64,000 nt of DNA, taken from sequence record PZ452609.1; one strand, written 5' to 3'. This stretch comes from a phage. Shown one piece after another: positions 7,276-62,976 of the stretch. The translations under genes and the position numbers were made by a program. The notes under the pieces are model-generated. The model did not search any database, had not been told where the DNA came from, and worked only from the letters and a program-made list of their open reading frames with translations. Numbering within the stretch: the first letter of the stretch is position 1; every line of letters begins with the position of its first letter.

Positions 7276-7757
7276 TGGTTAAAAGGGTTATTCACCCCGC
7301 TAGAGCAAAATTAGTCGGGGCTATGAAGAACTTGCAAACGGCTAATGCTCAAGTTGGGTATTTTCAAGAACAAGGTCAACATAGCTCTGGTTTTTCTTAT
7401 CCTGCTTTAATGTATTTACAAGAAGTTATTGGGGTTCCTTCAGCTTCTGGTAAAGTATATCGTAGGTTGTTTGAAATCACTATGATGCTAAACAGACAGA
7501 CCTTGTTAGAGCAGACTAAGAAGAATCTCTATAAGCAACTTAGCAGTCTCAACACAGACCCTTCAAATACTTTAGAAGCATTTGCAAAGAATGCTCAGAA
7601 GGCAATTAAAAGGGGTTTTGGTAATTCTGCTATCCTCCCTCCTAACGCACCTTCCACAGTCAAGAAAAAAGGCTTTAACGCACCTCTTGTTGAGACAGGT
7701 GACTTAAGAGATAACCTTGCTTATAAAATTTCTACTAAGAAGGGTATTAAGAAATGA
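7275..7757 (+). CDS. head-tail joining protein (putative)
   Basis: position; overlapping start/stop. Confidence 0.35.
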   Translation: MVKRVIHPARAKLVGAMKNLQTANAQVGYFQEQGQHSSGFSYPALMYLQEVIGVPSASGKVYRRLFEITMMLNRQTLLEQTKKNLYKQLSSLNTDPSNTLEAFAKNAQKAIKRGFGNSAILPPNAPSTVKKKGFNAPLVETGDLRDNLAYKISTKKGIKK

Positions 7758-8155
7758 GACTCTTAAACAGACACAGCTTTGTAGTAAAGCGTAAAGTCTC
7801 TGAAGACGGTTATTACAATGATGATGGTGATTGGGTAGCTTCACAAGATATTGTAGAGGTTAACTGCAAAGGTAATATCCAGCCATATATCAAAGGTTCT
7901 GTAAAGAACGGTACACAGATTGCTTTACCGGAAGGTATCAGGCTTACCGATACAAGAATCCTGTATACTACATATAAACTTAGAACTTCAGATGATGTAG
8001 AGTGGAATGAGTCTGACATTGTTATGATTGATGGTCATGAGTATGAAGTATTTATGACTATGGATTGGTCACAGCAATTAGCCCATACGTCCCATTATGA
8101 ATATATCATTATTAGAAGGGATAAAATGAATGCAGTTAGAAACAGCAGAACTTGA
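7754..8155 (+). CDS. head-tail joining protein (putative)
   Basis: position; overlapping start/stop. Confidence 0.35.
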   Translation: MRLLNRHSFVVKRKVSEDGYYNDDGDWVASQDIVEVNCKGNIQPYIKGSVKNGTQIALPEGIRLTDTRILYTTYKLRTSDDVEWNESDIVMIDGHEYEVFMTMDWSQQLAHTSHYEYIIIRRDKMNAVRNSRT

Positions 8156-8729: not shown

Positions 8730-10082
8730 ATGTGGAATCCAATTGTTAATGTAGATATTACATTGAACACCGCAGGAACTACAAGAGAAGGTTTTGGGCT
8801 ACCACTATTTTTAGCTTCAACAGATAACTTTGAAGAAAGAGTCCGTGGTTACACTTCCTTAACTGAAGTTGCTGAAGATTTCGATGAAAACTCTGCTGCA
8901 TATAAGGCTGCTAAACAACTTTGGAGTCAGACTCCTAAAGTAACTCAGCTTTATATTGGTAGACGTGCTATGCAGTACACTGTATCAATTCCTGATGAGG
9001 TTACTGAGAGCACCGACTATTCTTTAACTGTAGCTGTGAGCGGTGGAGTTTCTCAGCCATTCCAGTACACTTCACAGTCAGAAGATACTGCTGAGAAGGT
9101 GCTACAGCAGCTTAAAACTCAGATTGAAGCAGAGCCTTCTGTAAAAGACCTTGTTACCGTCAATGTAACTGGTGCTGGTGGTTCAGCAACAATGGTAATC
9201 ACCAAAGCGGGTGACAATGACTTCGTGAAGGTTACCACTACAGCACAAACAGTGTCAATTGCAAGTACAACTGCTGACACAGCATCGACTGCTCTGGCAG
9301 CTATTGAGGCTTATTCAACTGACTGGTATTTCATTGCAGCAGAAGATAGAACTCAACAGTTTGTCTTAGCAATGGCTTCTGAGATTCAAGCTCGTAAGAA
9401 GATTTTCTTTACAGCTAACTCTGATGTAACAGCCCTACAAGGTACAGAATTAGCCAGTGCAAATGATGTTCCAGCACAGCTTGCTAAGAGTCAGTACACT
9501 CGTACCGTTTGCTTGTGGCATCACACAGCAGCAGAAGACTATCCAGAAATGGCATACATTGCTTATGGCGCTCCGTATGATGCAGGTTCAATTGCTTGGG
9601 GTAACGTACAGTTAACTGGCGTAGCTGCTTCTCTACAGCCATCTAATCAGAGACCTCTGACAAGTATTCAGAAGTCAGCTTTAGATGCACGTCACTGTAA
9701 CTTTATTGACCTTGATGGTGGTGTTCCAGTGGTTCGTAGAGGGATTACTTCTGGTGGGGAATGGATTGATATCATCCGTGGTGTTGACTGGTTAGAATCA
9801 GACCTGAAAACTTCTCTGAGAGACTTGCTAATTAACCAGAAGGGTGGTAAGATTACTTATGATGATACTGGTATTACCCGTATTCGTCAAGTCATTGAAA
9901 CCTCTCTGCAAAGAGCAGTCAACAGAAACTTCCTGTCATCTTACACAGTTAATGTTCCTAAAGCCTCTCAAGTTGCTTTGGCAGACAAGAAAGCTCGTAT
10001 CCTGAAAGACGTTACCTTCTCAGGTATCTTAGCAGGGGCTATCTTGGATGTTGACTTGAAAGGTACAGTGGCTTACGAATAA
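8730..10082 (+). CDS. tail sheath protein (putative)
   Basis: 450 aa ORF followed by ~150 aa tube-size ORF, then chaperone pair and tape measure: canonical myovirus order. Confidence 0.6.
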   Translation: MWNPIVNVDITLNTAGTTREGFGLPLFLASTDNFEERVRGYTSLTEVAEDFDENSAAYKAAKQLWSQTPKVTQLYIGRRAMQYTVSIPDEVTESTDYSLTVAVSGGVSQPFQYTSQSEDTAEKVLQQLKTQIEAEPSVKDLVTVNVTGAGGSATMVITKAGDNDFVKVTTTAQTVSIASTTADTASTALAAIEAYSTDWYFIAAEDRTQQFVLAMASEIQARKKIFFTANSDVTALQGTELASANDVPAQLAKSQYTRTVCLWHHTAAEDYPEMAYIAYGAPYDAGSIAWGNVQLTGVAASLQPSNQRPLTSIQKSALDARHCNFIDLDGGVPVVRRGITSGGEWIDIIRGVDWLESDLKTSLRDLLINQKGGKITYDDTGITRIRQVIETSLQRAVNRNFLSSYTVNVPKASQVALADKKARILKDVTFSGILAGAILDVDLKGTVAYE

Positions 10083-19153: not shown

Positions 19154-20329
19154 ATGGCAGTAGGTGAAATTCAAATTAGTGCCTTGCCACAAGCGGCCTT
19201 ACCAGTTGATTTGAGTGATATCTTCCACCTTAAGCAAGGTGTTGAGGATAAAAGATGTACGCTTGAGCAGTTGTTAGCACCTCACGCATCTTTGAGGAAT
19301 AACCCTCATGGTGTAACTAAATCACAAGTAGGTCTTGATAATGTTATTAACTCTCTTCAATTAGTTGCAGCTAATAACTTGTCAGATATTGTAAGTGTTG
19401 CTGAGGCAAGAGCAAATCTACAAATTATGTCGTCAGAGGAAGTGAATAACTTAATTCAGCAACATATTGACGACAAAAGTAACCCACACAATACAACGAA
19501 AGCACAGGTTGGTTTAAGTAATGTTCAGAACTGGACAACATCTAATCTGTACAATGAAGATGCTGATAAGTATGCTACCGCGAAAGCAGTTAATAATTTA
19601 TACAAAGCTATCCAAGCGTCATATCCAGTAGGGACTATTCATCTATCTGTTAACTCTGCTAACCCATCCACTTACTTGCTTTGTGGAGGTACTTGGGAGT
19701 TAGTTTCTAAAGGTAGAGCACTAGTTGGTTATGATACAGATTCTAGACCTGTTGGTTCAACGTTTGGTTCTCAGACTGTAGCATTAACAAATAATAATTT
19801 ACCAGCACATACTCACTCTATCTATCTAACAGGTGGTGGTCATACACACTCTGCAAGTGTATCTATCTCTAGTTTTGATTATGGTTCAAAAAGTACATCA
19901 ACTTTTGATTACGGTACAAAAACGACTAATAGTGCTGGTGCTCACACTCACACGTTTAGTGGCACAACAAGTAATGCTGGTAACCACAACCATAGAGTCC
20001 CTATGAGGGGTAATGATAGGGGTGGCACAAACGCTATTACTGCATCTGCTGATGCTGGTGTTGGTAATGCTATGTATACTGATTTAGCTGGTGCTCACAC
20101 TCATAGCTTCTCAGGTACAACTGCATCATCTGGTGCTCATAGCCATACTGTCGCAATTGGTGCTCACAGCCACACTGTTAATATTGGTTCGCACAGTCAT
20201 ACAGGCACTGTTACTGTTTCTAGCTCTGAGCATACACACTCAGGGACATCTGGTTCTGTTGGTGGTGGTCAAGCTTTCAGTGTTGAGCAGCCATCTTTTG
20301 TAGTATATGTGTGGCAGAGAACAGCTTAA
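19154..20329 (+). CDS. tail fibre protein with tail-fibre repeats and His-box (HxH) C-terminal tip
   Basis: two NPHxxTKxQVGLxNVxN repeats; C-terminal GAHTHTFSG / GAHSHTV HxH repeats as in T-even distal fibre tips. Confidence 0.7.
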   Translation: MAVGEIQISALPQAALPVDLSDIFHLKQGVEDKRCTLEQLLAPHASLRNNPHGVTKSQVGLDNVINSLQLVAANNLSDIVSVAEARANLQIMSSEEVNNLIQQHIDDKSNPHNTTKAQVGLSNVQNWTTSNLYNEDADKYATAKAVNNLYKAIQASYPVGTIHLSVNSANPSTYLLCGGTWELVSKGRALVGYDTDSRPVGSTFGSQTVALTNNNLPAHTHSIYLTGGGHTHSASVSISSFDYGSKSTSTFDYGTKTTNSAGAHTHTFSGTTSNAGNHNHRVPMRGNDRGGTNAITASADAGVGNAMYTDLAGAHTHSFSGTTASSGAHSHTVAIGAHSHTVNIGSHSHTGTVTVSSSEHTHSGTSGSVGGGQAFSVEQPSFVVYVWQRTA

Positions 20330-20338
20330 TTTCTTTAC

Positions 20339-20361
20339 AGGGGCTTTATAGCCCCTTTTAA
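20339..20361 (+). terminator. stem-loop ggggct-ttat-agcccc followed by TTTT
   Basis: hairpin plus T-run between the two fibre genes; member of a recurring GGGGCTT..AAGCCCC element family. Confidence 0.5.
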
Positions 20362-23001: not shown

Positions 23002-23196
23002 ATGCCTACAATCCTAGCAATTCTTCTAAAAAATCTAGGTAGCTTCTTCTGGAAACTCATTTTATCCCTTCTAAGTGAATACATGATTGAGAAAGTGTTC
23101 TTTAAGCTTGCAAGATACCTTGCGAGTAAAACAGATACACCTATTGATGATGAGTTCGTAGATAACTTAGAAAAAGCTTTTAAGGGGGAGAAATAA
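23002..23196 (+). CDS. small hydrophobic/amphipathic protein (possible holin-like or membrane protein)
   Basis: 64 aa, hydrophobic N-terminal half, RBS gaggtga. Confidence 0.35.
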   Translation: MPTILAILLKNLGSFFWKLILSLLSEYMIEKVFFKLARYLASKTDTPIDDEFVDNLEKAFKGEK

Positions 23197-23568
23197 ATGA
23201 AGTGGCTAGAGGAAGCTTTTAAAAATAATATTGGTGCAATTGTAGTTGGTATTTTTAGTGTTATTGGGATGTATACCACTATGCAAGTCTCAAGTGGTAA
23301 GCAGGAAGTGTCTGTCACAACAAAGTTACAGCAGCTAGATAATTATTCCAAAAGTAACTATTCAGCTATTCGTGATTTACAGTCTGACATGAGATTGATT
23401 CAGCTAGGGATGGAGAACCAGAAAGTTCAGTTAGAGAATGTTAAGGGTGAAAACGCAAAACTTACCAAAACCCTTGATAAATTCTCTGACAGTGTGAACA
23501 ATCTGGCTCAATCAGTATCAGCCTTGCAAGCTATTACTGAAAAGAACACAAAGAATACTGAAAAATAA
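23197..23568 (+). CDS. membrane-anchored coiled-coil protein
   Basis: single predicted TM (IGAIVVGIFSVIGMYTTMQV) followed by coiled coil; 123 aa. Confidence 0.4.
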   Translation: MKWLEEAFKNNIGAIVVGIFSVIGMYTTMQVSSGKQEVSVTTKLQQLDNYSKSNYSAIRDLQSDMRLIQLGMENQKVQLENVKGENAKLTKTLDKFSDSVNNLAQSVSALQAITEKNTKNTEK

Positions 23569-27134: not shown

Positions 27135-27181
27135 AAATAAGCTATAACACCTGACTTGTCAACAGATTTTATAGCTTATTT
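27135..27181 (-). terminator. 13-bp perfect inverted repeat (aaataagctataa / ttatagcttattt), terminator-like on - strand and operator-like
   Basis: stem 27135-47 / 27169-81, 21-nt loop containing ttgaca on - strand; followed on - strand by U-rich tail. Confidence 0.4.
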
Positions 27182-27205
27182 GGCAGATTTTTTATAAGGC
27201 TACTG

Positions 27206-27270
27206 CCATCCTTCCATACCAAACCCGACCTTACCTCACCTTATCTTACCTTACCCCACCCTACCAGACC
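27206..27270. repeat. tandem pentanucleotide array (NNACC)x13 on + strand, nearly G-free
   Basis: atacc aaacc cgacc ttacc tcacc ttatc ttacc ttacc ccacc ctacc agacc read directly. Confidence 0.8.
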
Positions 27271-27348
27271 TCATTAAAAGACCCTCTTCAAAGACCTTTT
27301 AAAAAGGTAAGTCTCATTTTAATGTAGCTGAGACTAACTACCCATACT

Positions 27349-27428
27349 GTACCGCACCTGACCCGACCTGACCAGACCTAACATTACCGTGCCACACCGT
27401 ACCGAACAGAACACTGCCATACCTCACA
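27349..27428. repeat. second tandem pentanucleotide array (NNACC)x16
   Basis: gtacc gcacc tgacc cgacc tgacc agacc ... acacc gtacc ... atacc; each array followed by a hairpin with conserved loop ACCCTCTT. Confidence 0.75.
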
Positions 27429-27495
27429 TCACTTAAAAACCCTCTTAGAAGACTCTTAAGTGATGCTGGTGAGTACCCGTTGGTTTATGCTGCTC

Positions 27496-27523
27496 AGTAT
27501 ACTCACCAAATTTTCTATGTCAA
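27496..27523 (-). promoter_or_regulatory. near-consensus sigma70 promoter TTGACA-N16-TATACT on - strand
   Basis: - strand reads ttgaca tagaaaatttggtgag tatact; fires leftward into repeat region. Confidence 0.5.
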
Positions 27524-27530
27524 CAACTTT

Positions 27531-27677
27531 TTATATAAAAGTCCTGATAGCTATATGTGTTACAAAACAGAATATTGTGAACAAAACACCCATTGCAAAA
27601 GATGTGTCCAAAAGCTTACTTGCAATGTATGACAATACAAAGACAACCAGTATAAACAGAATGACTGTACTGAACAT
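27531..27677 (-). CDS. small hydrophobic peptide (48 aa, not in ORF track)
   Basis: MFSTVILFILVVFVLSYIASKLL... begins 3 nt after ligase stop; two hydrophobic stretches. Confidence 0.25.
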   Translation of the reverse strand: MFSTVILFILVVFVLSYIASKLLDTSFAMGVLFTIFCFVTHIAIRTFI

Positions 27678-27680
27678 AGT

Positions 27681-28781
27681 TTACTCATAATCCCTAATAA
27701 CTAGCCCTACAGGAAACTGTAAAGAACCCTTACGAGTCATCTTCTGGAACTGAACCGTTAAAGGTTTCCCGATAAACTCATCAGGATGCTCAGCAAGGTA
27801 CTGTTTCTTCTCATGAGTAGTCTTCCATGAGACATCTACAAAGACGTTAGGAAGAGTCTCTACAACGAACTTACCATGACCACGTTTATCAGTCTTTACA
27901 CCAGTCACTTTAAACTCTTCAGTGTGCATCTTCTTGTGCTTAATCAAGAAGTATGAACGGTGACAACACTCATAGAAGGAGTCTTCAGAGATTGAACGGT
28001 ACATTGCACCTTCAAACTTAACTTCAACCCACTTATCATGAGCTTCATCAAATTCTTCCCAAGAGTTTACACGACGAGACTTAACAGGGACAACTTTACA
28101 GCCATCTCCCAAGTCATTCAATGGTGAAGTCTCAATAATATCCCTACGTTCAGGCCACGTCTTAGTGCTATCACAGATGTCATACCAGTAAAACTTAAGA
28201 AGATGTCTGTCTGGGTTGTCTTCATTTTTAATCATGGAGACAATATCTTCTAAGTCCCACCCATGAGCATAAACCTCCCCGTCAAACTCATCAACGTCTG
28301 CATGGAGTCTTAACATAGTCATAATGTCAGGTGTTAGCTCAGTAGGTATTTTATAAACAGTATTCTCACGAGAATAAGCCGTGAAACTAACTGAATCATC
28401 ACCTCTTGAAATTCTACAACGGACACCATCAAGTTTTGGTTGAGCATCAGCAGGGAACTTCAGATACTTTGCATGGCTAACCTTTGCAGCATCATGAGCA
28501 AGCTGTACACCTACCTTCTCAGTATTCTGTGCAGACTCTTTTGTGTAAGCGTAACCTTTACGGTCTACTTGTTTCTTATACTTAGCAGAAACTTCAAAGA
28601 GAGCTTGCTGTTCAGCGTTACGCTCATTCTTTTTACCGATGTTCTTAGGCTCTGCTGTGTACTCTTCAAACATCATCTTGCCATTTTCTTTACCATAGGT
28701 TGTGATAACTTTGTCACCTACAGCAACACATGACCAGACGTTGAAGGAACCATCTTTATTTTGTTTGTACAGAATTGTCAT
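27681..28781 (-). CDS. lig: ATP-dependent DNA ligase
   Basis: motif I KLDGVRC (KxDGxR adenylation site); ~366 aa like T7-type ligases; start 28781 has RBS gaggt. Confidence 0.8.
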   Translation of the reverse strand: MTILYKQNKDGSFNVWSCVAVGDKVITTYGKENGKMMFEEYTAEPKNIGKKNERNAEQQALFEVSAKYKKQVDRKGYAYTKESAQNTEKVGVQLAHDAAKVSHAKYLKFPADAQPKLDGVRCRISRGDDSVSFTAYSRENTVYKIPTELTPDIMTMLRLHADVDEFDGEVYAHGWDLEDIVSMIKNEDNPDRHLLKFYWYDICDSTKTWPERRDIIETSPLNDLGDGCKVVPVKSRRVNSWEEFDEAHDKWVEVKFEGAMYRSISEDSFYECCHRSYFLIKHKKMHTEEFKVTGVKTDKRGHGKFVVETLPNVFVDVSWKTTHEKKQYLAEHPDEFIGKPLTVQFQKMTRKGSLQFPVGLVIRDYE

Positions 28782-28986
28782 TTTTAACCTCTGAGTGATA
28801 CCAAGTGTCACAAGCATTACATGCGTAAAGCTCTAAGTCATTTTTATCTGGTTTATGGAAACAGTTTGACCCACAACGACACCGGAATAACTTACCATCA
28901 ACACGAAGAATGAATGTTTCAAGCTCACCCTCTTCTGTAAGGACGGCGTTATTATATTTGTTATCTTTATCCATTTGTACTCTCAC
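28756..28986 (-). CDS. zinc-finger protein
   Basis: CRCGSNC ... CNAC Cys pairs; 76 aa. Confidence 0.4.
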   Translation of the reverse strand: MRVQMDKDNKYNNAVLTEEGELETFILRVDGKLFRCRCGSNCFHKPDKNDLELYACNACDTWYHSEVKNDNSVQTK

Positions 28987-29130
28987 CTGTGTCAGATTTC
29001 ATATAAGACCTGTCGCTAAACCTTTTAATGAAATGTACAACGCATTTCGGTGTATCTTTTGCATCTTTGATGTGCAACCTTTCGAAACTGCGCACTGTGA
29101 AGGTTGCATCTGTCATTGTTTGCTTAGGTT

Positions 29131-29337
29131 TCATTTTCTCTTACCACCAATCTCTACGTCGATAACTTGAACATCACCAGCAACATCAAACTTATGAATG
29201 ATGCTCTCAACAGTATAAGTCCAACCATCAATGCGAACCAACTCACCTTCTCGTGGGACGATTGGATTACGTTGAGCTATGGTTGTAGTGGAGTGAACAA
29301 CATCATAACGATAGGTATAGTTTACTAATACTTCCAT
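29131..29337 (-). CDS. hypothetical protein (start chosen at 29337)
   Basis: RBS gaggt before ATG 29337; avoids long overlap with lipoprotein gene. Confidence 0.3.
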   Translation of the reverse strand: MEVLVNYTYRYDVVHSTTTIAQRNPIVPREGELVRIDGWTYTVESIIHKFDVAGDVQVIDVEIGGKRK

Positions 29338-29347
29338 CGTGAAAACC

Positions 29348-29605
29348 TCACTCAATAACCGTAGTATGTGATTGACCATTTTTGCCATAGCTATAAGATG
29401 TTGTTGTTTGAGAGTTTGGGCATCTGACAACAACAATATCTCTGCTTATAGCATCACCATTGAGTTTGTAGATTTTGCAGTCTTGCATCTCTGGAGGGAG
29501 GCTGTAAGAAGCATCTTTGTTTTCATAAGATGGGTTGCAGCCAGCCAGAAAAATTACTCCAAGTGCAACCATTGCTTTCACACAACTCTTAACCTTATTG
29601 TTCAC
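29348..29605 (-). CDS. lipoprotein (signal peptidase II substrate)
   Basis: MNNKVKSCVKAMVALGVIFLAGC: positively charged n-region, hydrophobic core, lipobox L-A-G-C; GTG start with RBS gagagg. Confidence 0.55.
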   Translation of the reverse strand: MNNKVKSCVKAMVALGVIFLAGCNPSYENKDASYSLPPEMQDCKIYKLNGDAISRDIVVVRCPNSQTTTSYSYGKNGQSHTTVIE

Positions 29606-29741
29606 GATAGTCTACCTCTCTGTATGTTTTTAAATAGTGAGTGATGAGTTCTGGTAAGTCACTACGTTTAACGTTTGAACGAAGAAGTGTCCAGTCAAAA
29701 CCTTTACCAACCCTTCCCCAGAGACTGTACATTTTCTTCAT
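29595..29741 (-). CDS. small basic protein (48 aa, not in ORF track)
   Basis: ATG overlaps upstream stop as ATGA; RBS ggag 6 nt upstream. Confidence 0.3.
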   Translation of the reverse strand: MKKMYSLWGRVGKGFDWTLLRSNVKRSDLPELITHYLKTYREVDYREQ

Positions 29742-29971
29742 AGCAACTCCAGAATATCAATACGTTCGCCTTTGAGTACTCCAGTACGGTCTTTTGCAAT
29801 CTTACCGTCAACGATAAGGATGTGTGTAGACCTTAAAGCGTCGTTGTTAAAGGTTTTTACGAACTTGCTAGGCATGACTACAATGGACATCTCCTGAATT
29901 AACTCTGGAGTGTAGCAGTTATCATGAAGTTGCTGAATAACGTCTGCAAGTGTCATTTTTGATGTCTCCAA
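29738..29971 (-). CDS. hypothetical protein
   Basis: 77 aa ORF. Confidence 0.35.
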   Translation of the reverse strand: METSKMTLADVIQQLHDNCYTPELIQEMSIVVMPSKFVKTFNNDALRSTHILIVDGKIAKDRTGVLKGERIDILELL

Positions 29972-45616: not shown

Positions 45617-45858
45617 TGACTTATGTGATTTACTCCAAAACTGGATGCCCTCAGTGTGAGACTGCAAAGAATTTTGCAAAAACTCGTGGTATTGACCATG
45701 TTGTGAGAATGTTAGGGCAGGATTATGAACTGTCAGACCTGATGGATATTGCACAGATGCCAGTTCGTCAGATGCCATTCATCATGAAAACTGATGGACA
45801 AAACCTAAAGCCTGTTGGGACGCTACAGAATTTTATGGCAGAGGTGAATAATGCTTAA
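45616..45858 (+). CDS. nrdH: glutaredoxin-like protein (NrdH-type)
   Basis: SKTGCPQCETAK CxxC redox motif near N-terminus; 80 aa; adjacent to nrdB. Confidence 0.6.
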   Translation: MTYVIYSKTGCPQCETAKNFAKTRGIDHVVRMLGQDYELSDLMDIAQMPVRQMPFIMKTDGQNLKPVGTLQNFMAEVNNA

Positions 45859-46057
45859 ACGCATTTGGGAAGGTTTGGTTGTTGATGCACCAGCTATTGT
45901 GATTGGTATGCTGATTGTTAACCTATTTACTGATTTTGAACAAGGTTCATTGTTTGGGGCCATGTTACTATGGGTTATCTTTGAAATATTAGAGATACAG
46001 TTAGGCATCACTGAAAAACTTAGAAAACTCGTTTCTAAGTTTTCTAAAAAGATTTAA
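45851..46057 (+). CDS. small membrane protein (two predicted TM segments)
   Basis: 68 aa, hydrophobic stretches AIVIGMLIVNLF and LFGAMLLWVIF, charged C-terminus. Confidence 0.35.
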   Translation: MLKRIWEGLVVDAPAIVIGMLIVNLFTDFEQGSLFGAMLLWVIFEILEIQLGITEKLRKLVSKFSKKI

Positions 46058-48404: not shown

Positions 48405-48605
48405 ATGTTTAAAATATCAAAAGCGTTGATATACATTCTCCACATTCTAATCTTCTTCTTTGGGGTTAGTGTTATGGTATGGGGTTTTTCAGACCCACAA
48501 TGGAGTTTCGCATATCAGGGTCAGATGGATTTATGGTCATGCTTCAAACCATTTTTAGGGTTAGTCATAGCATTCAGTGCATTGCCAACTAAGGTGAAAT
48601 TATGA
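48405..48605 (+). CDS. small membrane protein
   Basis: 66 aa with two hydrophobic segments. Confidence 0.3.
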   Translation: MFKISKALIYILHILIFFFGVSVMVWGFSDPQWSFAYQGQMDLWSCFKPFLGLVIAFSALPTKVKL

Positions 48606-58544: not shown

Positions 58545-58568
58545 ATTTCTTAAAAGGCTGCTTCGGCG
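58545..58568 (+). terminator. intrinsic terminator (aggcugc-UUCG-gcggccu + T-run)
   Basis: stem with one G-U pair, UUCG loop, TTTTTT. Confidence 0.6.
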
Positions 58569-58579
58569 GCCTTTTTTAT

Positions 58580-58607
58580 TTGTATTTTGTGCAGAGTGCT
58601 GTATAAT
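58580..58607 (+). promoter_or_regulatory. putative promoter TTGTAT-N16-TATAAT
   Basis: perfect -10 tataat 58602-07. Confidence 0.35.
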
Positions 58608-58638
58608 TGATGTCACGATAAACTAAACAGGAGAACCA

Positions 58639-59187
58639 ATGAAGAAATTGATTCTAGGTTTGTGCTTAATGTTTACAGCACACTTATCTTATGCAGTTGA
58701 CTGCCCAGAACTATCAATTAGCCAAAAAGTGAACATGTTAAAAGCTTACCAGTATGGTGAGAATAACATGGGTAAAGGTTGGGGTATCACTCTAGCAGCT
58801 ATAGCCTTACAAGAGTCAGAGTTAGGTCTGAAGGTAGAAAATAAAAAGACCCATGACTATGGTATCTTCCAGAATCACTTGAAGACTGTTGTAAAGCGTA
58901 ACAAAATTAGTCCTAATGTTGCTAAAAAGAAACTCTTAAAAGATTTTGACTATGCCGCAAAAGAAACACATAAAGAGCTTGAGTTTTGGACGAAGGTGCA
59001 TGGTCACCCAAAGTCAAAGAAGACTTTACAAAAAGTTTTAGCATCATATAATGCTGGGTATTCGTACAGAATCCCTAAAGCTAAGAAATATTCTCAAGAT
59101 GTCTATAACAACATGAAAGTTATTGCTCAATGTGAATTTGCAACAAACATTTCTAAGGTAAACCATGAAAAAATTAAAAAAGTCTGA
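58639..59187 (+). CDS. secreted lytic transglycosylase-like protein (putative endolysin)
   Basis: signal peptide MKKLILGLCLMFTAHLSYA; SLT-like core AIALQESELG...DYGIFQ. Confidence 0.5.
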   Translation: MKKLILGLCLMFTAHLSYAVDCPELSISQKVNMLKAYQYGENNMGKGWGITLAAIALQESELGLKVENKKTHDYGIFQNHLKTVVKRNKISPNVAKKKLLKDFDYAAKETHKELEFWTKVHGHPKSKKTLQKVLASYNAGYSYRIPKAKKYSQDVYNNMKVIAQCEFATNISKVNHEKIKKV

Positions 59188-59860
59188 TGAAGTCCTGTGC
59201 CACGCTTATGACTTACATCCTCATGAGTTAGGTCTTGATTCCTGTGTATGGACTCCAGAACAGTGTAGGGATTTTGAAGACACTGCAAGAGAAGTTGTAT
59301 GTTCACTGGAAGAGTTCCACACATCAGAACCAATTGTGAACGTTGTGGACAAAGAGACTGGACAAACTATAGGTGTAAGGCGCGATAGTTTAGTCATAGT
59401 CAATAAAGACCTTGTAGAAAAAGGTAACCTCATCTTAGCAGATATTGATGGTGTTCTTACAAATTTTAATCACGAAGATTGCTCAACGGAATTGACTGAT
59501 GGTTCATTCTCACAGTACACTAATCTTCTTGATTCTGTAAGAGCAAAGCCAACATATGTTTTCAACATTATTGATGCAATTGCAAATCATGCAGCAGTTG
59601 GACTCTTGACAGCAAGAGGTGAATCTCAGAGAATACCTACTGAGATGTTTTTAAGGCACAATATAGAGCATGATTACTTGCTTTTTATGCGTGGTTTTGG
59701 AACTAACTCTATAAGTGCAGAAAGTTTGAAAGTGAGGATGATTCAGTCTTGCATTCTTCCTTACTTTAATATAGTATGCTTTATAGAAGATACAGAGAAT
59801 AATGTTCAGAAGGTAAACAGAATCCTTCCACACATTAAAACTATGTTAGTTAAACATTGA
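59165..59860 (+). CDS. HAD-superfamily phosphatase-like protein
   Basis: motif I ADIDGVLT, motif II LLTARG, later FIEDTENN. Confidence 0.45.
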   Translation: MKKLKKSDEVLCHAYDLHPHELGLDSCVWTPEQCRDFEDTAREVVCSLEEFHTSEPIVNVVDKETGQTIGVRRDSLVIVNKDLVEKGNLILADIDGVLTNFNHEDCSTELTDGSFSQYTNLLDSVRAKPTYVFNIIDAIANHAAVGLLTARGESQRIPTEMFLRHNIEHDYLLFMRGFGTNSISAESLKVRMIQSCILPYFNIVCFIEDTENNVQKVNRILPHIKTMLVKH

Positions 59861-60336
59861 GAGAAGAACTTATGAACAATATTATTACGGTAGCACTGGA
59901 CGATACGGCAAACAAATCTGAAGTAGTTCGTAAAATGATTCAAGGTAACTTTGAAGGTAAAATTTTCCGTGCTGTTAATGTAAAAGCTGATGGTAGCATT
60001 CGTGAATATCGTGCATTGTTGAACGTTAAGAAGCACGTAAAAGGTGTTGGTTCAACGACTGCACACAAAGAAAACCTGATGACTATCTATGATATGGGTA
60101 AGGCTTCAGAGTTAGGTGCTGAAGGTATCGTTAAAGAAGGTGCTCCGTATCGCTCTTTCAATCTGGAAACTACTCTTATGCTTTCCTTTACAAGTGGTTC
60201 CAAAACAATCACTTATCTCTTTACTGATGCTGCAACGGTATCTGCTATTAAGGATAGCACTGTCAAAGCTGGCGTAGTTGCTGCTGCAAAAGCTTCTTCG
60301 ATGGCTGCAAATATCCTTGCTAAAGTCCTCGGTTAA
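59857..60336 (+). CDS. hypothetical protein
   Basis: 159 aa. Confidence 0.35.
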   Translation: MREELMNNIITVALDDTANKSEVVRKMIQGNFEGKIFRAVNVKADGSIREYRALLNVKKHVKGVGSTTAHKENLMTIYDMGKASELGAEGIVKEGAPYRSFNLETTLMLSFTSGSKTITYLFTDAATVSAIKDSTVKAGVVAAAKASSMAANILAKVLG

Positions 60337-60347
60337 GGTTAAGATAC

Positions 60348-60370
60348 AGGCTCCTTCGGGAGCCTTTTTC
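60348..60370 (+). terminator. intrinsic terminator (aggctcc-UUCG-ggagcct + TTTT)
   Basis: perfect stem, UUCG loop, T-run. Confidence 0.65.
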
Positions 60371-60388
60371 ATTTCAGGAGATTGTTAA

Positions 60389-60736
60389 ATGACATTTAAA
60401 GAGTTCTGTCAAGCTACTTTCATAATTGTTTTCTTAGTTGGGGCAGGTGTCTGGGGAGGATACTCTTACAGAGACTACCAAGTTGCTGAAACTGAGCTAA
60501 ACAACCAGAAGCTAATAAGTGTTGCTAAAGATGCTTATCAGGAAGGATTAGCTACACTGAGCACCAATTACAAAAATGATTTGAAAGACGTGCTTGCTAA
60601 GAATAAGCACACAAAAGAGGTACTGACATATGAAAAGACTAAGCCAGAGTTTTATAATGTTTGTGTTACTGATAACTATGTCAGGGTGTTCAACGAACAA
60701 AGTGAGCAATACATTCAAAAACTCCCAAGTAAGTGA
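60389..60736 (+). CDS. i-spanin-like protein (Rz-like, putative)
   Basis: N-terminal TM anchor FIIVFLVGAGVWGG then helical periplasmic domain; 3' end overlaps a lipoprotein ORF in another frame. Confidence 0.4.
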   Translation: MTFKEFCQATFIIVFLVGAGVWGGYSYRDYQVAETELNNQKLISVAKDAYQEGLATLSTNYKNDLKDVLAKNKHTKEVLTYEKTKPEFYNVCVTDNYVRVFNEQSEQYIQKLPSK

Positions 60737-60896
60737 AAGTGATAAGTACACTCAGGAAGATGTAAGATATGCTGTCAAAGGTAACACTGGTGCAGACTTA
60801 TCAGAAGCCCTTGAGTTTTATCGTGACGGGTACTATCAGTGTACTATGAAAGCTAACAACTTGATTGATATGATTTTATTAGGGAATAAGCAGTAA
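60630..60896 (+). CDS. o-spanin-like lipoprotein (Rz1-like, putative), embedded/overlapping
   Basis: MKRLSQSFIMFVLLITMSGC lipobox-like signal; begins inside the preceding gene in +1 frame. Confidence 0.35.
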   Translation: MKRLSQSFIMFVLLITMSGCSTNKVSNTFKNSQVSESDKYTQEDVRYAVKGNTGADLSEALEFYRDGYYQCTMKANNLIDMILLGNKQ

Positions 60897-61168
60897 TGAC
60901 ACAAAGTAATGATGAAACTTTCTACACAGAAGGTTACTTACTTCTACCGAGACCGAAAGATACTTACATGAGGATTGATTTCTTACCTACGATTATGGAT
61001 AATGTAATGTGTCACATCTTTATGCAAGGTATCACAGCACAGCTTAAGCATGTTGGTAAAGAGTGCAAAATAAAGGTTGACACTCATCCAGAAATCAAAG
61101 AGAATCACTACACATGGTTCCTACCAGACTCTAAAGAAATCTTAGCAGTTCTTAAAACGAGGAAATGA
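60896..61168 (+). CDS. hypothetical protein
   Basis: 90 aa. Confidence 0.3.
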   Translation: MTQSNDETFYTEGYLLLPRPKDTYMRIDFLPTIMDNVMCHIFMQGITAQLKHVGKECKIKVDTHPEIKENHYTWFLPDSKEILAVLKTRK

Positions 61169-61479
61169 TTATGCAATTCCAGCCAACAAATCGTGGATTT
61201 TCTTATGCAGAATTTAAAGATGCTAAAGGGGAAATTTGTACTTTACAAGAGAGTTCATCATACGAACCATGTATCTGGTTAGGTGCTAAAGAGGTCTCTG
61301 TTCAGTACCTAGATAATGGCTGGAAAACACTTGATATCCCAGCATTAGTTGGTAAAGATTTTATAGGTAATCAAAGAATGAAGCTCAATCAAGAACAGGT
61401 AAAAGAGTTGTTGCCGTACCTTCAATACTTTGCTGAAAATGGTGAATTACCAACAGAGGAACTTACAAATGCAGATTAA
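61165..61479 (+). CDS. hypothetical protein
   Basis: 104 aa. Confidence 0.3.
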   Translation: MIMQFQPTNRGFSYAEFKDAKGEICTLQESSSYEPCIWLGAKEVSVQYLDNGWKTLDIPALVGKDFIGNQRMKLNQEQVKELLPYLQYFAENGELPTEELTNAD

Positions 61480-61795
61480 TGGAAGAGACTTTGTAGCCGT
61501 TTACTACGAGAAAGGTAAAGAAGTTGGCGTAGCGCAAGTATCTTATGGCAATGGTGGGTGGCTATATGGAACAATCGCAGTAGTTGGAACGAGAAGTGAT
61601 ACAAAAACTTTTAAAGATTGTGTTGACCTTCTTGAAGAATCCATTCAGAATCATTGGTGTCTGATATGGATGACTGACAACGAAGTGATAGAACGCTTCA
61701 AAAAGATTGATATCAACATTGATAGTATTGAGCATGTTGATTTATATGAGCTAACTGAGAAGGTAAACTATGAGAGTAATTCTAGCCAGAGATAA
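61469..61795 (+). CDS. hypothetical protein
   Basis: start ATG 61469 with RBS gagga. Confidence 0.3.
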   Translation: MQINGRDFVAVYYEKGKEVGVAQVSYGNGGWLYGTIAVVGTRSDTKTFKDCVDLLEESIQNHWCLIWMTDNEVIERFKKIDINIDSIEHVDLYELTEKVNYESNSSQR

Positions 61796-61997
61796 AAAGA
61801 CACGGAAACTCATCCGGTCAGCAGTATTCATTGGAAGAAATGAAGTCATCCCGTTTACAGCAAACGATGTGATAGCCTACAGGAAAAACTTAGTGTTTAG
61901 TGATTGCTTGCGTGGCTTCATCTCCCAACCGTTGGAAGATTTTAAAAGCCGTTGTGGTAAAGGTATCATCATTCAAGAGGCAATTATCAATGGCTGA
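61770..61997 (+). CDS. hypothetical protein
   Basis: 75 aa. Confidence 0.3.
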   Translation: MRVILARDKKTRKLIRSAVFIGRNEVIPFTANDVIAYRKNLVFSDCLRGFISQPLEDFKSRCGKGIIIQEAIING

Positions 61998-62190
61998 CTT
62001 CTGCAAAGACTGTTCTATCGAAATGTTCGGACGTGATACAGGTGACTTAAAAGGTCTTATCACTGAAGATGACTTTAAAGCTGGTTATGCAATGCCAGTA
62101 ATCTGTGAAGGTTGTGGGTGCATCTGGGTAGACCACGAAGGACAACGTGTAAAACCTTCAGAAGACAAAGAATCTTGGGAGAGATGTTAA
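61990..62190 (+). CDS. small zinc-binding protein
   Basis: CKDC ... CEGCGC Cys clusters; RBS agagg. Confidence 0.3.
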   Translation: MADFCKDCSIEMFGRDTGDLKGLITEDDFKAGYAMPVICEGCGCIWVDHEGQRVKPSEDKESWERC

Positions 62191-62976
62191 ATGGGTATTG
62201 TAAAAATAATTAATGGTGATATCTTTGCCGCATTTGATAAAGGTAAGTTTGACATCATCGGTCACGGTTGCAACTGTATGAATTTAATGGGTGCAGGTAT
62301 CGCTGACAAGATTTCTAAACTTTACCCAAAAGCATATGAGACCGATACAGAAGTTTATCTGTATGCAGGTGGTATAGGACACAAACCCTGTGAAAATTTA
62401 CTGGGTAATTTCTCTGTAGCACGTTTAAAACAAGGTCGTATAGCTAACCTTTACACTCAGCTTAAGACTGGTAAAGATGCCCGATACAGTGCTTTAGAGT
62501 CATCTTTGAAACAGCTTAACAGATACTGTGAAGTTAATCAGTTGAAGAAGGTTGGTTTACCTATGATTGGTGCAGGTATCGGTGGACTTGACCCTCAAGC
62601 CGTCACAGTTATCATTAATCAGGTGATGAAGAGTGTAGATGTTTATCTGTATGTCTACGAAGGAGAGATGTACCACAAGTTACGCTCAGGTTGGAATAAC
62701 TACTGTGAACCAGAATACTTTGCAGGTGTAGTAACGTTCAAAGATGATACAGTTACCCTCTTCAGACGAAGAAAAGGTAAGATACATCAAAGTAACCCTC
62801 CGGTTGAGAAGATGTCTCTAAGTAACGCTCTAGTTACCCACCTGTCGAAGAGCAATCACAGGATAGCCGTAACATTTGGCAGTGATGCAGATACATATAT
62901 TTATGCAAGAACTGATGAGGATATCGAGACGGTCTTCTCTTCACCAGAAGTTACCTTCTTAGACGCAAAGAACTAA
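62191..62976 (+). CDS. macro domain-like protein (ADP-ribose binding/processing, putative)
   Basis: N-terminal INGDIFAAF..FDIIGHGCNCMNLMGAGIADKI and later GLPMIGAGIGG resemble macro-domain Gly-rich motifs. Confidence 0.4.
   Translation: MGIVKIINGDIFAAFDKGKFDIIGHGCNCMNLMGAGIADKISKLYPKAYETDTEVYLYAGGIGHKPCENLLGNFSVARLKQGRIANLYTQLKTGKDARYSALESSLKQLNRYCEVNQLKKVGLPMIGAGIGGLDPQAVTVIINQVMKSVDVYLYVYEGEMYHKLRSGWNNYCEPEYFAGVVTFKDDTVTLFRRRKGKIHQSNPPVEKMSLSNALVTHLSKSNHRIAVTFGSDADTYIYARTDEDIETVFSSPEVTFLDAKN

Follow-up and report, generated by a model that had tools for sequence, protein, structure and literature searches.

The window, which is the whole stretch of 64,000 nucleotides that was analysed, is from the genome of a Felixounavirus, a Felix O1-like phage of E. 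coli, and shows 99-100% identity to Escherichia typing phage 1. All open reading frames (ORFs) considered in the original prediction for this DNA are present at the coordinates given there. The locus of interest (58639-60896) is part of the Felixounavirus region located downstream of rIIA and rIIB, and it includes three unrelated functional units. The genes and transcription signals described for this locus are all located on the plus strand.

An intrinsic terminator is found after rIIB (58552-58575), where a GC-rich hairpin is followed by a run of T residues, and a terminator is annotated in phage AYO145A as well. Further downstream is a sequence resembling a sigma-70 promoter (TTGTAT-N16-TATAAT, 58580-58607), which was read off the sequence and is located upstream of the first gene of the locus. 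The -35 hexamer falls below the criteria of the scan tool, and phage AYO145A has an annotated promoter at the corresponding position. We infer that this element functions as a promoter, and the first two genes of the locus would then form an early unit that it drives.

The first of these genes (58639-59187; hereafter the SLT gene) is preceded by the ribosome binding site AGGAG at 58629-58633 and encodes a 182 amino acid protein of the Vs.1 family, as indicated by a match to phrog_600 (E 1e-57), by its motifs and predicted fold, and by homology to the Vs.1 protein of phage T4. It overlaps by 23 nucleotides the second gene (59165-59860), which encodes a HAD-type phosphatase of 231 amino acids (phrog_3970, E 2e-134). 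This protein carries a DxDGxL motif that aligns with T4 PseT, and it aligns to the phosphatase half of both the phrog_415 and phrog_505 profiles. A faint match to PF25109 (HAD_PNKP) is also seen for the homologue in a related context, L008. Together, these alignments identify the product as a predicted HAD phosphatase akin to the half of polynucleotide kinase that acts as a 3'-phosphatase.

The next gene (59872-60336) encodes a conserved protein of 154 amino acids when translated from its ATG, although a TTG at 59857 is an alternative start. The protein belongs to a family of unknown function (phrog_2267, E 4e-50), and hydropathy analysis reveals no membrane helix. On any evidence gathered, it does not appear to be a lysis protein. 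Thus, the HAD gene is located between the SLT gene and the spanin genes as originally described, but it shares this interval with a further gene. A second intrinsic terminator (60348-60365), which is also annotated in AYO145A, separates the SLT/HAD unit from the spanin genes. These encode an i-spanin of 115 amino acids (60389-60736; phrog_1152, 'Rz-like spanin', E 9e-42) and an o-spanin of 88 amino acids (60630-60896; phrog_4180, E 2e-47). Meaningful NCBIfam matches were found for none of the seven proteins tested, and Pfam gave only noise for the HAD protein, gp085 and both spanins.

The N-terminus of the SLT protein is composed of a basic MKK sequence, a 13-residue leucine-rich hydrophobic core (LILGLCLMFTAHL) and a cleavage-type site, S-Y-A|V, and the signal sequence spans residues 1-19. 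This arrangement looks like a cleavable Sec signal, unlike the Gly/Ala-rich anchors of SAR proteins, and this argues against the SAR/pinholin mechanism that had been suggested for this protein. The proposal of an SLT-like protein with an export signal is borne out. We also considered whether the protein could be a lipoprotein, and this was rejected because the candidate L-G-L-C9 carries a leucine at -1, which is unfit for a lipobox, and is not conserved.

Three motifs are evident in the SLT protein, E59-S60, G75-x-F-Q78 and S136-Y-N-A-G140. Positions E59, Q78, Y137, N138 and G140 are invariant in the alignment of homologues, S60 and G75 are kept in at least 90% of the sequences, and Glu59 is the predicted catalytic residue. 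There is also a possible disulfide between Cys22 and Cys165, and both residues are present in close relatives. The match to the Pfam SLT family (PF01464; E 9e-4, 19.2 bits) does not reach the curated gathering cut-off of 21.3, and precomputed matches to this same family are present on more distant homologues (P0015-P0020). Single-sequence searches of the PDB with the SLT protein and with the HAD protein found nothing. A profile search of the PDB with the SLT protein matches EtgA (best, E 7e-4) and goose lysozyme. An AF2 model of the protein (pLDDT 84.6) matches GH23 folds in Foldseek, including g-type lysozyme, a GH23 chitinase, EtgA, Slt Cj0843, MltE and MltF. The Foldseek probability is 1.00 for the best of these matches and 0.75-0.85 for MltE and MltF, with TM values of 0.35-0.53, and viral SLT proteins match the model at TM 0.66-0.73. 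These observations suggest that the protein is a GH23/SLT lytic transglycosylase-like protein whose export, cleavage and enzymatic activity can be predicted. Some records label it a 'putative lysin'.

The SLT protein and T4 Vs.1 (NP_049725) share 32% identity over 174 amino acids (E 2e-16 by pairwise BLASTP). They are connected by a bridging homologue (P0017), whose gene immediately precedes vs in a T4-like contig and which matches vs.1 of T4, RB32 and Acinetobacter phage 133. There are at least 1266 clusters of the Vs.1 family at 50% identity (E<=1e-3), and representatives are seen in Felixounavirus, T4-like phages, Ackermannviridae and a contig of a chimallin-encoding jumbo phage. We examined a sample of 165 members of 150-300 amino acids, which combines the earlier homologues with the best matches of the 1266-cluster search. 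An N-terminal hydrophobic signal is kept in 154 of these, and the E-S motif is kept in 160. A marginal SLT similarity of the family was already published in 2006 (PMC1524935), and this comparative-genomics note is the only work on Vs.1 found in the literature searched, which yielded no functional study.

One possibility is a role without catalysis, in which the SLT protein would be a periplasmic binder or inhibitor similar to T4 Spackle and would block incoming tail lysozymes or host autolysins through its lysozyme-like fold, perhaps in superinfection exclusion. Such a role would fit the periplasmic location predicted from the signal sequence, the position of the gene beside rIIA and rIIB, and T4 Vs.1, which is not known to be essential. 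However, there is little or no variation in the catalytic glutamate, the adjacent serine and the substrate-binding motifs across a very large family, and this is the pattern expected of an active enzyme rather than of a decoy. Thus, we consider an inhibitory function very unlikely.

It is harder still to credit that the protein is a virion-associated transglycosylase that pierces the wall for DNA injection, in the manner of T7 gp16, PRD1 P7 or the muralytic enzymes of phiKZ. Its fold resembles phiKZ gp144 and PRD1 P7 at low score. However, virion assembly in the cytoplasm cannot be reconciled with a cleavable export signal, the protein is small with a single domain, and its gene is located among non-structural genes. 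In addition, the protein is absent among the virion proteins in the accessible portion of the list for the related phage Sf14.

The locus had been described as a lysis cluster built around the SLT protein as endolysin. This description fails, because the real endolysin is located elsewhere in the genome. A canonical soluble lysozyme carrying an E-x8-D-x5-T triad (NC_041979.1, 19881-20345; phrog_7 endolysin, E 7e-58) is encoded in the same genome, about 12.3 kb past the end of the window. A tblastn search for an endolysin homologue inside the window gave only noise. Thus, the region at 58639-60896 is not a lysis cassette, nor is the SLT protein the endolysin. The organization of the locus likewise argues against a cassette, as the SLT gene is set apart from the spanin genes by two unrelated genes and an intrinsic terminator. 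In a relative with 38% identity (L008), the SLT-HAD pair is kept and the spanin genes are not beside it. In another context (L009), an SLT homologue coexists with a Phage_lysozyme gene, and the linkage of SLT and spanin genes is not conserved among the contexts examined. The neighbours of the SLT gene are rIIB upstream and the HAD phosphatase gene downstream, which agrees with the original prediction in that no holin or pinholin gene adjoins it. Published descriptions of Felix O1-like phages also report lysis genes that are scattered rather than gathered in a cassette (PMC4319497, PMC6486253).

Nonetheless, the conservation of the catalytic motifs and export signal causes us to weigh whether the SLT protein could be a functional Sec-exported or SAR endolysin, freed when a distant holin or pinholin collapses the membrane potential, and acting as a module with the spanins. 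The SLT gene is located only 1.2 kb upstream of the spanin genes on the same strand, and the lysin label in some records would fit this function. Two small membrane-protein ORFs immediately upstream of the homologue in L008 also might point to a holin-like partner in that relative. A conserved partner of this kind was sought, and no such ORF is found here or in the other contexts examined. However, the presence of the canonical soluble lysozyme weighs heavily against an endolysin role, as do the 13-residue leucine-rich core with its cleavage-type site, which is unlike SAR anchors, and the terminator, intervening genes and unconserved spanin linkage noted above. Moreover, phage T4 carries Vs.1 in addition to gene e and yet needs gp e for lysis, since T4 e mutants fail to lyse even with vs.1 intact. 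An endolysin function is therefore unlikely, although the SLT protein could conceivably add to lysis as a second lytic enzyme delivered by Sec.

The two spanin genes form a genuine two-component i-spanin/o-spanin pair, as judged from the encoded proteins and their arrangement. The i-spanin has an N-terminal hydrophobic segment at residues 5-26 by hydropathy, with a membrane helix at about residues 9-26, followed by a polar remainder, and there is a single cysteine (Cys92) in its periplasmic domain. The o-spanin begins with a lipoprotein signal sequence that ends in the lipobox MKRLSQSFIMFVLLITMSG|C20-S-T (TMSG|C20), wherein serine rather than aspartate occupies the +2 position. Cys20 is invariant in six diverse homologues, and both Cys20 and a second cysteine, Cys71, are invariant across Ounavirinae, Kuravirus, Sashavirus and P2-like phages. 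Both proteins recur in conserved form in over 360 phage records, which is far beyond chance. Relative to the i-spanin gene, the o-spanin gene is shifted to the +1 frame, and the two overlap by 107 nucleotides. Thus, the spanin pair that had been proposed is real, but its genes are overlapped rather than embedded.

An AAGAGG sequence similar to a Shine-Dalgarno (SD) element is located 9 nucleotides upstream of the o-spanin ATG at 60630. The RefSeq start at 60678 was rejected as an alternative, since no SD sequence precedes it and the conserved signal sequence would be lost. An internal ATG serves as the o-spanin start in RefSeq and in several GenBank records, which thereby lose the lipoprotein signal, and this is an annotation error. 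The pair is already annotated as i-spanin and o-spanin in the GenBank records of many relatives. Homologues of the pair directly follow holin and endolysin genes in phages Solent and vB_YenM_324, but this is not so in the present genome.

Three candidate holins with two transmembrane segments had been nominated elsewhere in the window, and only the product of 45851-46057 clearly has two hydrophobic segments. The product of 48405-48605 has one strong segment and a weaker stretch at residues 47-61, which is seen by eye and is below the threshold of the script. The interval 23002-23568 consists of two ORFs, one for a 64 amino acid product without a strong membrane helix and one for a 123 amino acid product with a single N-terminal helix. 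The latter (23197-23568, plus strand) belongs to a family of unknown function, phrog_4038, and its relatives are annotated as holins in phages Moogle (CPT_Moogle54) and heid. Mass spectrometry found the homologue of phage Sf14 in virions, and therefore we regard this protein as no more than a putative holin, one that is part of the scattered lysis system and not of this locus.

In our judgement, it is highly probable that there is no cassette at this locus, and that it instead carries an accessory Vs.1-type enzyme with a HAD phosphatase, a conserved gene and genuine spanins, while the endolysin is encoded elsewhere. The first unit would be the promoter-proximal, overlapping pair of SLT and HAD genes. 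Presumably, the SLT protein is exported by the Sec pathway and cut by signal peptidase I after Ala19, and it then folds into a small periplasmic GH23/SLT enzyme. It could then cleave the glycan strands of peptidoglycan via Glu59, and would serve as an accessory muralytic or remodelling enzyme rather than as the endolysin. The HAD protein would be a cytoplasmic phosphatase of the polynucleotide-kinase type. The second unit would be the conserved gene at 59872-60336 with the terminator that follows it. In the third unit, the spanins would bridge the periplasm as an inner-membrane type II protein and an outer-membrane lipoprotein, by analogy with lambda Rz/Rz1. Following the same analogy, lysis would be completed when the spanins fuse the inner membrane with the outer one, once the sacculus has been destroyed by the endolysin. 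The spanins need an endolysin for this, and it is the soluble lysozyme whose separate gene is found about 12 kb past the window.

Databases or papers already contain the spanin pair, the scattering of lysis genes in Felix O1-like phages and the similarity of the Vs.1 family to SLT proteins. For the role of the periplasmic, apparently active transglycosylases of this family, there is a speculative reading that we consider rather unlikely. In this reading, the family is a second muralytic system that is widespread among large virulent phages infecting Gram-negative hosts, and Sec delivers the enzyme to the periplasm in the course of infection, where it would have a defined role. If this were true, then the possible roles include priming of the sacculus for a rapid, spanin-dependent fusion of the envelope, a back-up endolysin gated by the proton motive force, and remodelling of the wall against superinfection. 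In that event, the conserved translational overlap of the SLT and HAD genes in Ounavirinae would be a hint that the two act together. Felix O1-like phages, which are in use for biocontrol, or T4, with its tractable genetics, would be convenient systems for establishing what Vs.1 does.

Among known enzymes, the SLT protein is similar to the specialised small periplasmic lytic transglycosylases of secretion systems, which include EtgA, IagB/IpgF, VirB1 and P19. They likewise have about 150-190 amino acids, a Sec signal and one GH23 domain, and EtgA is the best PDB profile match of the SLT protein as well as a fold match. However, the SLT protein comes from virulent phages rather than from secretion-system loci, and the similarity to these enzymes is remote. 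The Sec-exported endolysin Lys44 of Oenococcus phage fOg44 and the SAR endolysins P1 Lyz and phage 21 R also gain access to the wall compartment with no need of a canonical holin hole. In contrast to the SLT protein, each is the sole endolysin of its phage and is encoded within a lysis cassette, whereas a separate soluble endolysin is present here. In addition, SAR anchors are rich in Gly and Ala and remain uncleaved, but the signal of the SLT protein looks cleavable.

The closest parallel in a well-studied phage is T4 Vs.1, which is a single-domain protein of nearly the same length (181 versus 182 amino acids) that also has an N-terminal signal sequence and shares the E-S, F-Q and S-Y-N-x-G motifs. 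In both T4 and the Felixounavirus phage, the protein coexists with a separate canonical endolysin. However, T4 Vs.1 lacks the Cys22/Cys165 pair, and its gene is located between regB and vs, whereas the SLT gene comes after rIIB and shares an overlap with the HAD phosphatase gene.

The authors who described phage Mushroom called the Felix O1-type lysis system 'T4-like'. As with T4 PseT.3/PseT.2, the spanin genes are apart from the endolysin and holin genes, and they likewise lie near a polynucleotide-kinase/phosphatase gene. Direct BLASTP comparison reveals no similarity of the spanins to PseT.3 and PseT.2, and therefore the T4 parallel is one of organization only. Even here there are differences, as the T4 spanin genes overlap by 4 nucleotides at their junction rather than by 107, and the gene order is not the same.

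Compared with lambda, the o-spanin gene is partly overlapping rather than fully embedded, and the o-spanin is without proline whereas Rz1 is proline-rich. Similarity to lambda-type families is limited to weak PHROG matches (phrog_456, E 1e-4) and is otherwise not detectable. The spanin pair also differs from those of both lambda and P2 in being located away from the holin and endolysin genes. However, like lambda Rz/Rz1 and P2 LysB/LysC, it combines a type II inner-membrane protein with an outer-membrane lipoprotein whose gene is in the +1 frame, and LysB/LysC reportedly have the same overlapped arrangement as the pair found here.

There are two lysines, a leucine-rich core of 13 residues and a small-x-small site at the N-terminus (MKKLILGLCLMFTAHLSYA followed by VDCPE) of the 182 amino acid SLT protein, which is encoded at 58639-59187. 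The Pfam SLT model matches this protein with 19.2 bits (E 9e-4), below its cut-off of 21.3 bits, and no function is assigned to the corresponding PHROG family, phrog_600. PF01464 is carried by more distant homologues from a large protein collection. Residues E59, Q78, Y137, N138, G140 and Y151 are invariant in the alignment and S60 and G75 are nearly so; judged from sequence, they make up the family 1 lytic transglycosylase signatures E-S, G-x-x-Q and A/S-Y-N-x-G. Searched against the PDB, the alignment profile finds EtgA, a T3SS transglycosylase (E 7e-4), as well as goose lysozymes. An AlphaFold model (pLDDT 84.6, pTM 0.79) has structural matches only to GH23 proteins, namely g-type lysozyme, a GH23 chitinase, EtgA, Slt Cj0843, MltE/F/D and phiKZ gp144, and in a viral structure library its matches (TM 0.66-0.73) are proteins named 'Transglycosylase SLT domain-containing', from T4-like phages and others. 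Thus, the motifs, profile matches and GH23 fold, along with the N-terminal signal, bear out the original prediction of a signal-bearing SLT-like protein.

This protein is a member of the T4 Vs.1 family. A bridging homologue from a T4-like contig is encoded directly upstream of vs (valyl-tRNA-synthetase modifier) and near an RI antiholin gene. By tblastn it matches 2019 phage records, including vs.1 of T4, RB32 and Acinetobacter phage 133, as well as T2, Felixounaviruses and Ackermannviridae. Compared directly, the SLT protein and T4 Vs.1 are 32% identical over 174 residues (E 2e-16), and the N-terminus of Vs.1 is likewise a signal sequence (MRKALLAGLLAISMMAHS). An exhaustive profile search returned 1266 clusters at 50% identity (E <= 1e-3), and its best matches are nearly all 160-195 amino acids long. 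Among 165 sampled members of 150-300 amino acids, comprising the earlier homologues and the best profile-search matches, a strongly hydrophobic N-terminal stretch is present in 154 and the E-S motif is retained by 160. A literature search found no functional work on this very large family.

The proposed lysis cluster with a signal-peptide endolysin at its centre is not supported, given a separate lysozyme, a terminator, spanins that are unlinked in a relative, and scattered lysis genes. Elsewhere, this genome has a gene for a canonical lysozyme of 154 amino acids, a soluble protein with an E-x8-D-x5-T triad (phrog_7 endolysin, E 7e-58) and no membrane helix. Its gene is located at positions 19881-20345 of the Escherichia typing phage 1 (TP1) record, 12.3 kb past the window end, and no counterpart was found within the 64-kb window. 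Similarly, T4 has vs.1 besides the endolysin gene e. T4 e mutants do not lyse, and therefore Vs.1 is no substitute for the endolysin. One unrelated phage contig carries a homologue of the SLT protein alongside a Phage_lysozyme gene, and a further homologue is found in a chimallin-encoding jumbo phage contig. With a sigma-70-like promoter of its own, the SLT gene is also set apart from the spanins by an intrinsic terminator and two unrelated genes. In L008, a diverged Ounavirinae-like contig whose SLT protein is only 38% identical, the gene order rIIA, rIIB, SLT, HAD phosphatase is retained and a phrog_2267-like gene is present, yet no spanin pair lies behind it. Genome papers by the Center for Phage Technology (PMC4319497, PMC4392139, PMC6486253) credit Felix O1-like phages with a soluble lysozyme as endolysin, both an i-spanin and an o-spanin, and no more than a putative holin, with lysis genes 'scattered around the genome', and one of the three terms the system 'T4-like'. 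The original observation is sound, and databases or published work already cover everything substantive on the locus.

What the evidence shows is the order of the genes, their signals and motifs, the fold and the homology; the mechanistic steps that follow are inferred. The Vs.1-like SLT protein would be exported by Sec and cleaved after Ala19, possibly with a Cys22-Cys165 disulfide, and would use Glu59 to cut glycan strands, acting as a periplasmic accessory enzyme with a role other than lysis itself. The HAD protein would be a cytoplasmic phosphatase with no relation to lysis. The spanins would bridge the periplasm and fuse the membranes once the sacculus had been removed by the separately encoded lysozyme, let out by a putative holin.

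The spanin pair is real and already known. Every ORF named in the original prediction is found where it was placed, and these two genes do overlap in different frames, although they are of the overlapped rather than the embedded class. The i-spanin gene (60389-60736) encodes 115 amino acids with a single N-terminal hydrophobic helix and belongs to phrog_1152, 'Rz-like spanin' (E 9e-42). The o-spanin gene (60630-60896) shares 107 nucleotides with it in the +1 frame and encodes 88 amino acids, beginning with a lipoprotein signal and lipobox (MKRLSQSFIMFVLLITMSG followed by CST); it matches phrog_4180 (E 2e-47) and, weakly, a spanin family. By tblastn, the i-spanin is found in 405 phage records and the o-spanin, full-length from residue 1, in 365, and many of these records label the genes as i-spanin or o-spanin. 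In an alignment covering Felixounavirus, Kolesnikvirus, Kuravirus, Sashavirus and one P2-like Yersinia phage, the o-spanin's signal-sequence leucines, lipobox Cys20 and a second cysteine, Cys71, are invariant. Homologous pairs directly follow holin-endolysin-holin in Salmonella phage Solent and follow holin-peptidase in Yersinia phage vB_YenM_324, which is classical guilt-by-association support.

The sequence AAGAGG is located 9 nucleotides upstream of the o-spanin ATG at 60630. The RefSeq start at 60678 has no such Shine-Dalgarno-like sequence upstream and would delete the signal sequence. The originally predicted coordinates are better than those of RefSeq. RefSeq NC_041979 and several GenBank records, fjerdesal, AYO145A, ShigP1 and phiEa104 among them, begin the o-spanin at an internal ATG or give a truncated ORF, and the lipoprotein signal sequence is lost. 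Identity to the i-spanin is 95% or higher in 212 records. For the o-spanin it is 80-90% in 222 records, and just 3 reach 99% or more. Where the o-spanin visibly differs from that of fjerdesal, the changes are mostly in the non-overlapping part (around residues 46-60).

Three scattered two-TM proteins had been put forward as holin candidates. The first, at 23002-23568, is instead two ORFs, one of 64 amino acids (23002-23196) and one of 123 (23197-23568), small genes that close the tail-fibre operon. A clear membrane helix is seen in the second alone, which has just one. This N-terminal helix precedes a long polar C-terminus, in keeping with the holin reported for Mushroom, which is of class III (one membrane helix, N-in/C-out). 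Relatives annotate the 123 amino acid product as 'putative holin' (Moogle) or 'holin' (heid, Sf13 and others); the Mushroom record labels both homologous ORFs hypothetical, and PHROGs gives no function. The Sf14 homologue gp55, 'Holin or lysozyme', was found in purified virions by mass spectrometry. Holin status is therefore unproven, and the product may be a virion- or tail-fibre-associated protein instead of a holin, or both. Two hydrophobic segments are indeed present at 45851-46057; at 48405-48605 a single strong one is accompanied by a weaker stretch (residues 47-61, judged by eye and under the script threshold). Both genes are located among nucleotide-metabolism genes, and the evidence gathered supports neither as a holin. 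Between rIIB and the SLT gene, L008 has two small ORFs with hydrophobic, membrane-like segments (7398-7905), one of 92 amino acids with a TTG start and one of 75 that is holin-like, in which two hydrophobic stretches can be made out by eye; neither ORF has an equivalent in the window.

A sigma-70-like promoter for the SLT gene (TTGTAT-N16-TATAAT, 58580-58607) is located directly past the rIIB terminator. The HAD phosphatase gene (59165-59860) does lie between the SLT gene and the spanins, as predicted, although the SLT gene does not merit its 'endolysin' label and a second gene also intervenes. This is the conserved phrog_2267 gene (59872-60336), annotated without function and followed by the intrinsic terminator at 60348-60365. 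The SLT and HAD genes overlap by 23 nucleotides in the window (58639-59860) and by 20 in L008 (7998-9162), and the retained overlap suggests conserved translational coupling of a predicted periplasmic enzyme with a cytoplasmic one. The HAD protein, with the motif DIDGVL, matches polynucleotide-kinase families across the phosphatase half of their profiles and aligns with T4 PseT at HAD motifs I and IV. The database label 'polynucleotide kinase' is probably only half right, because no kinase P-loop motif is evident by eye. An N-terminal extension of about 85 residues (59165-59420) matched no family; it contains four cysteines (C12, C27, C34 and C46) and several histidines and may bind metal.

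The 2.8 kb spanning the locus is 100% identical to TP1 (KP869100 / NC_041979, genus Felixounavirus), and over 200 further Felix O1-like phages, with hosts in E. coli, Salmonella, Shigella and Citrobacter, share 90-99% identity with it. Aligned at full length, the window follows the reverse strand of NC_041979, from 9753 down to 1 and on from 88531 down to 32662. Record positions 9754-32661, with the tRNA cluster and the annotated endolysin gene, are therefore absent from it. Identity to TP1 is 99.2-99.9% except at 27180-29956, around the DNA ligase gene and the small ORFs next to it, where it is only 83-87%. This patch is a mosaic replacement, and the phage is thus a close relative of TP1 and not TP1 itself. 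The 293 bp at 9461-9753, present once in the window, align to the TP1 record twice, at positions 1-293 and at its final 293 bp, consistent with terminal redundancy in the TP1 assembly.

The organisation of 58639-62976 resembles that of two T4 loci. In T4, vs.1 is two genes away from the macro-domain gene tk.4, and the window has a macro-domain gene at 62191-62976. The T4 spanin genes pseT.3 and pseT.2 adjoin the polynucleotide kinase/phosphatase gene pseT, although the spanin sequences of the window are unrelated to those of T4. This parallel hints at an old block of non-structural genes common to T4-like and Felix O1-like phages.
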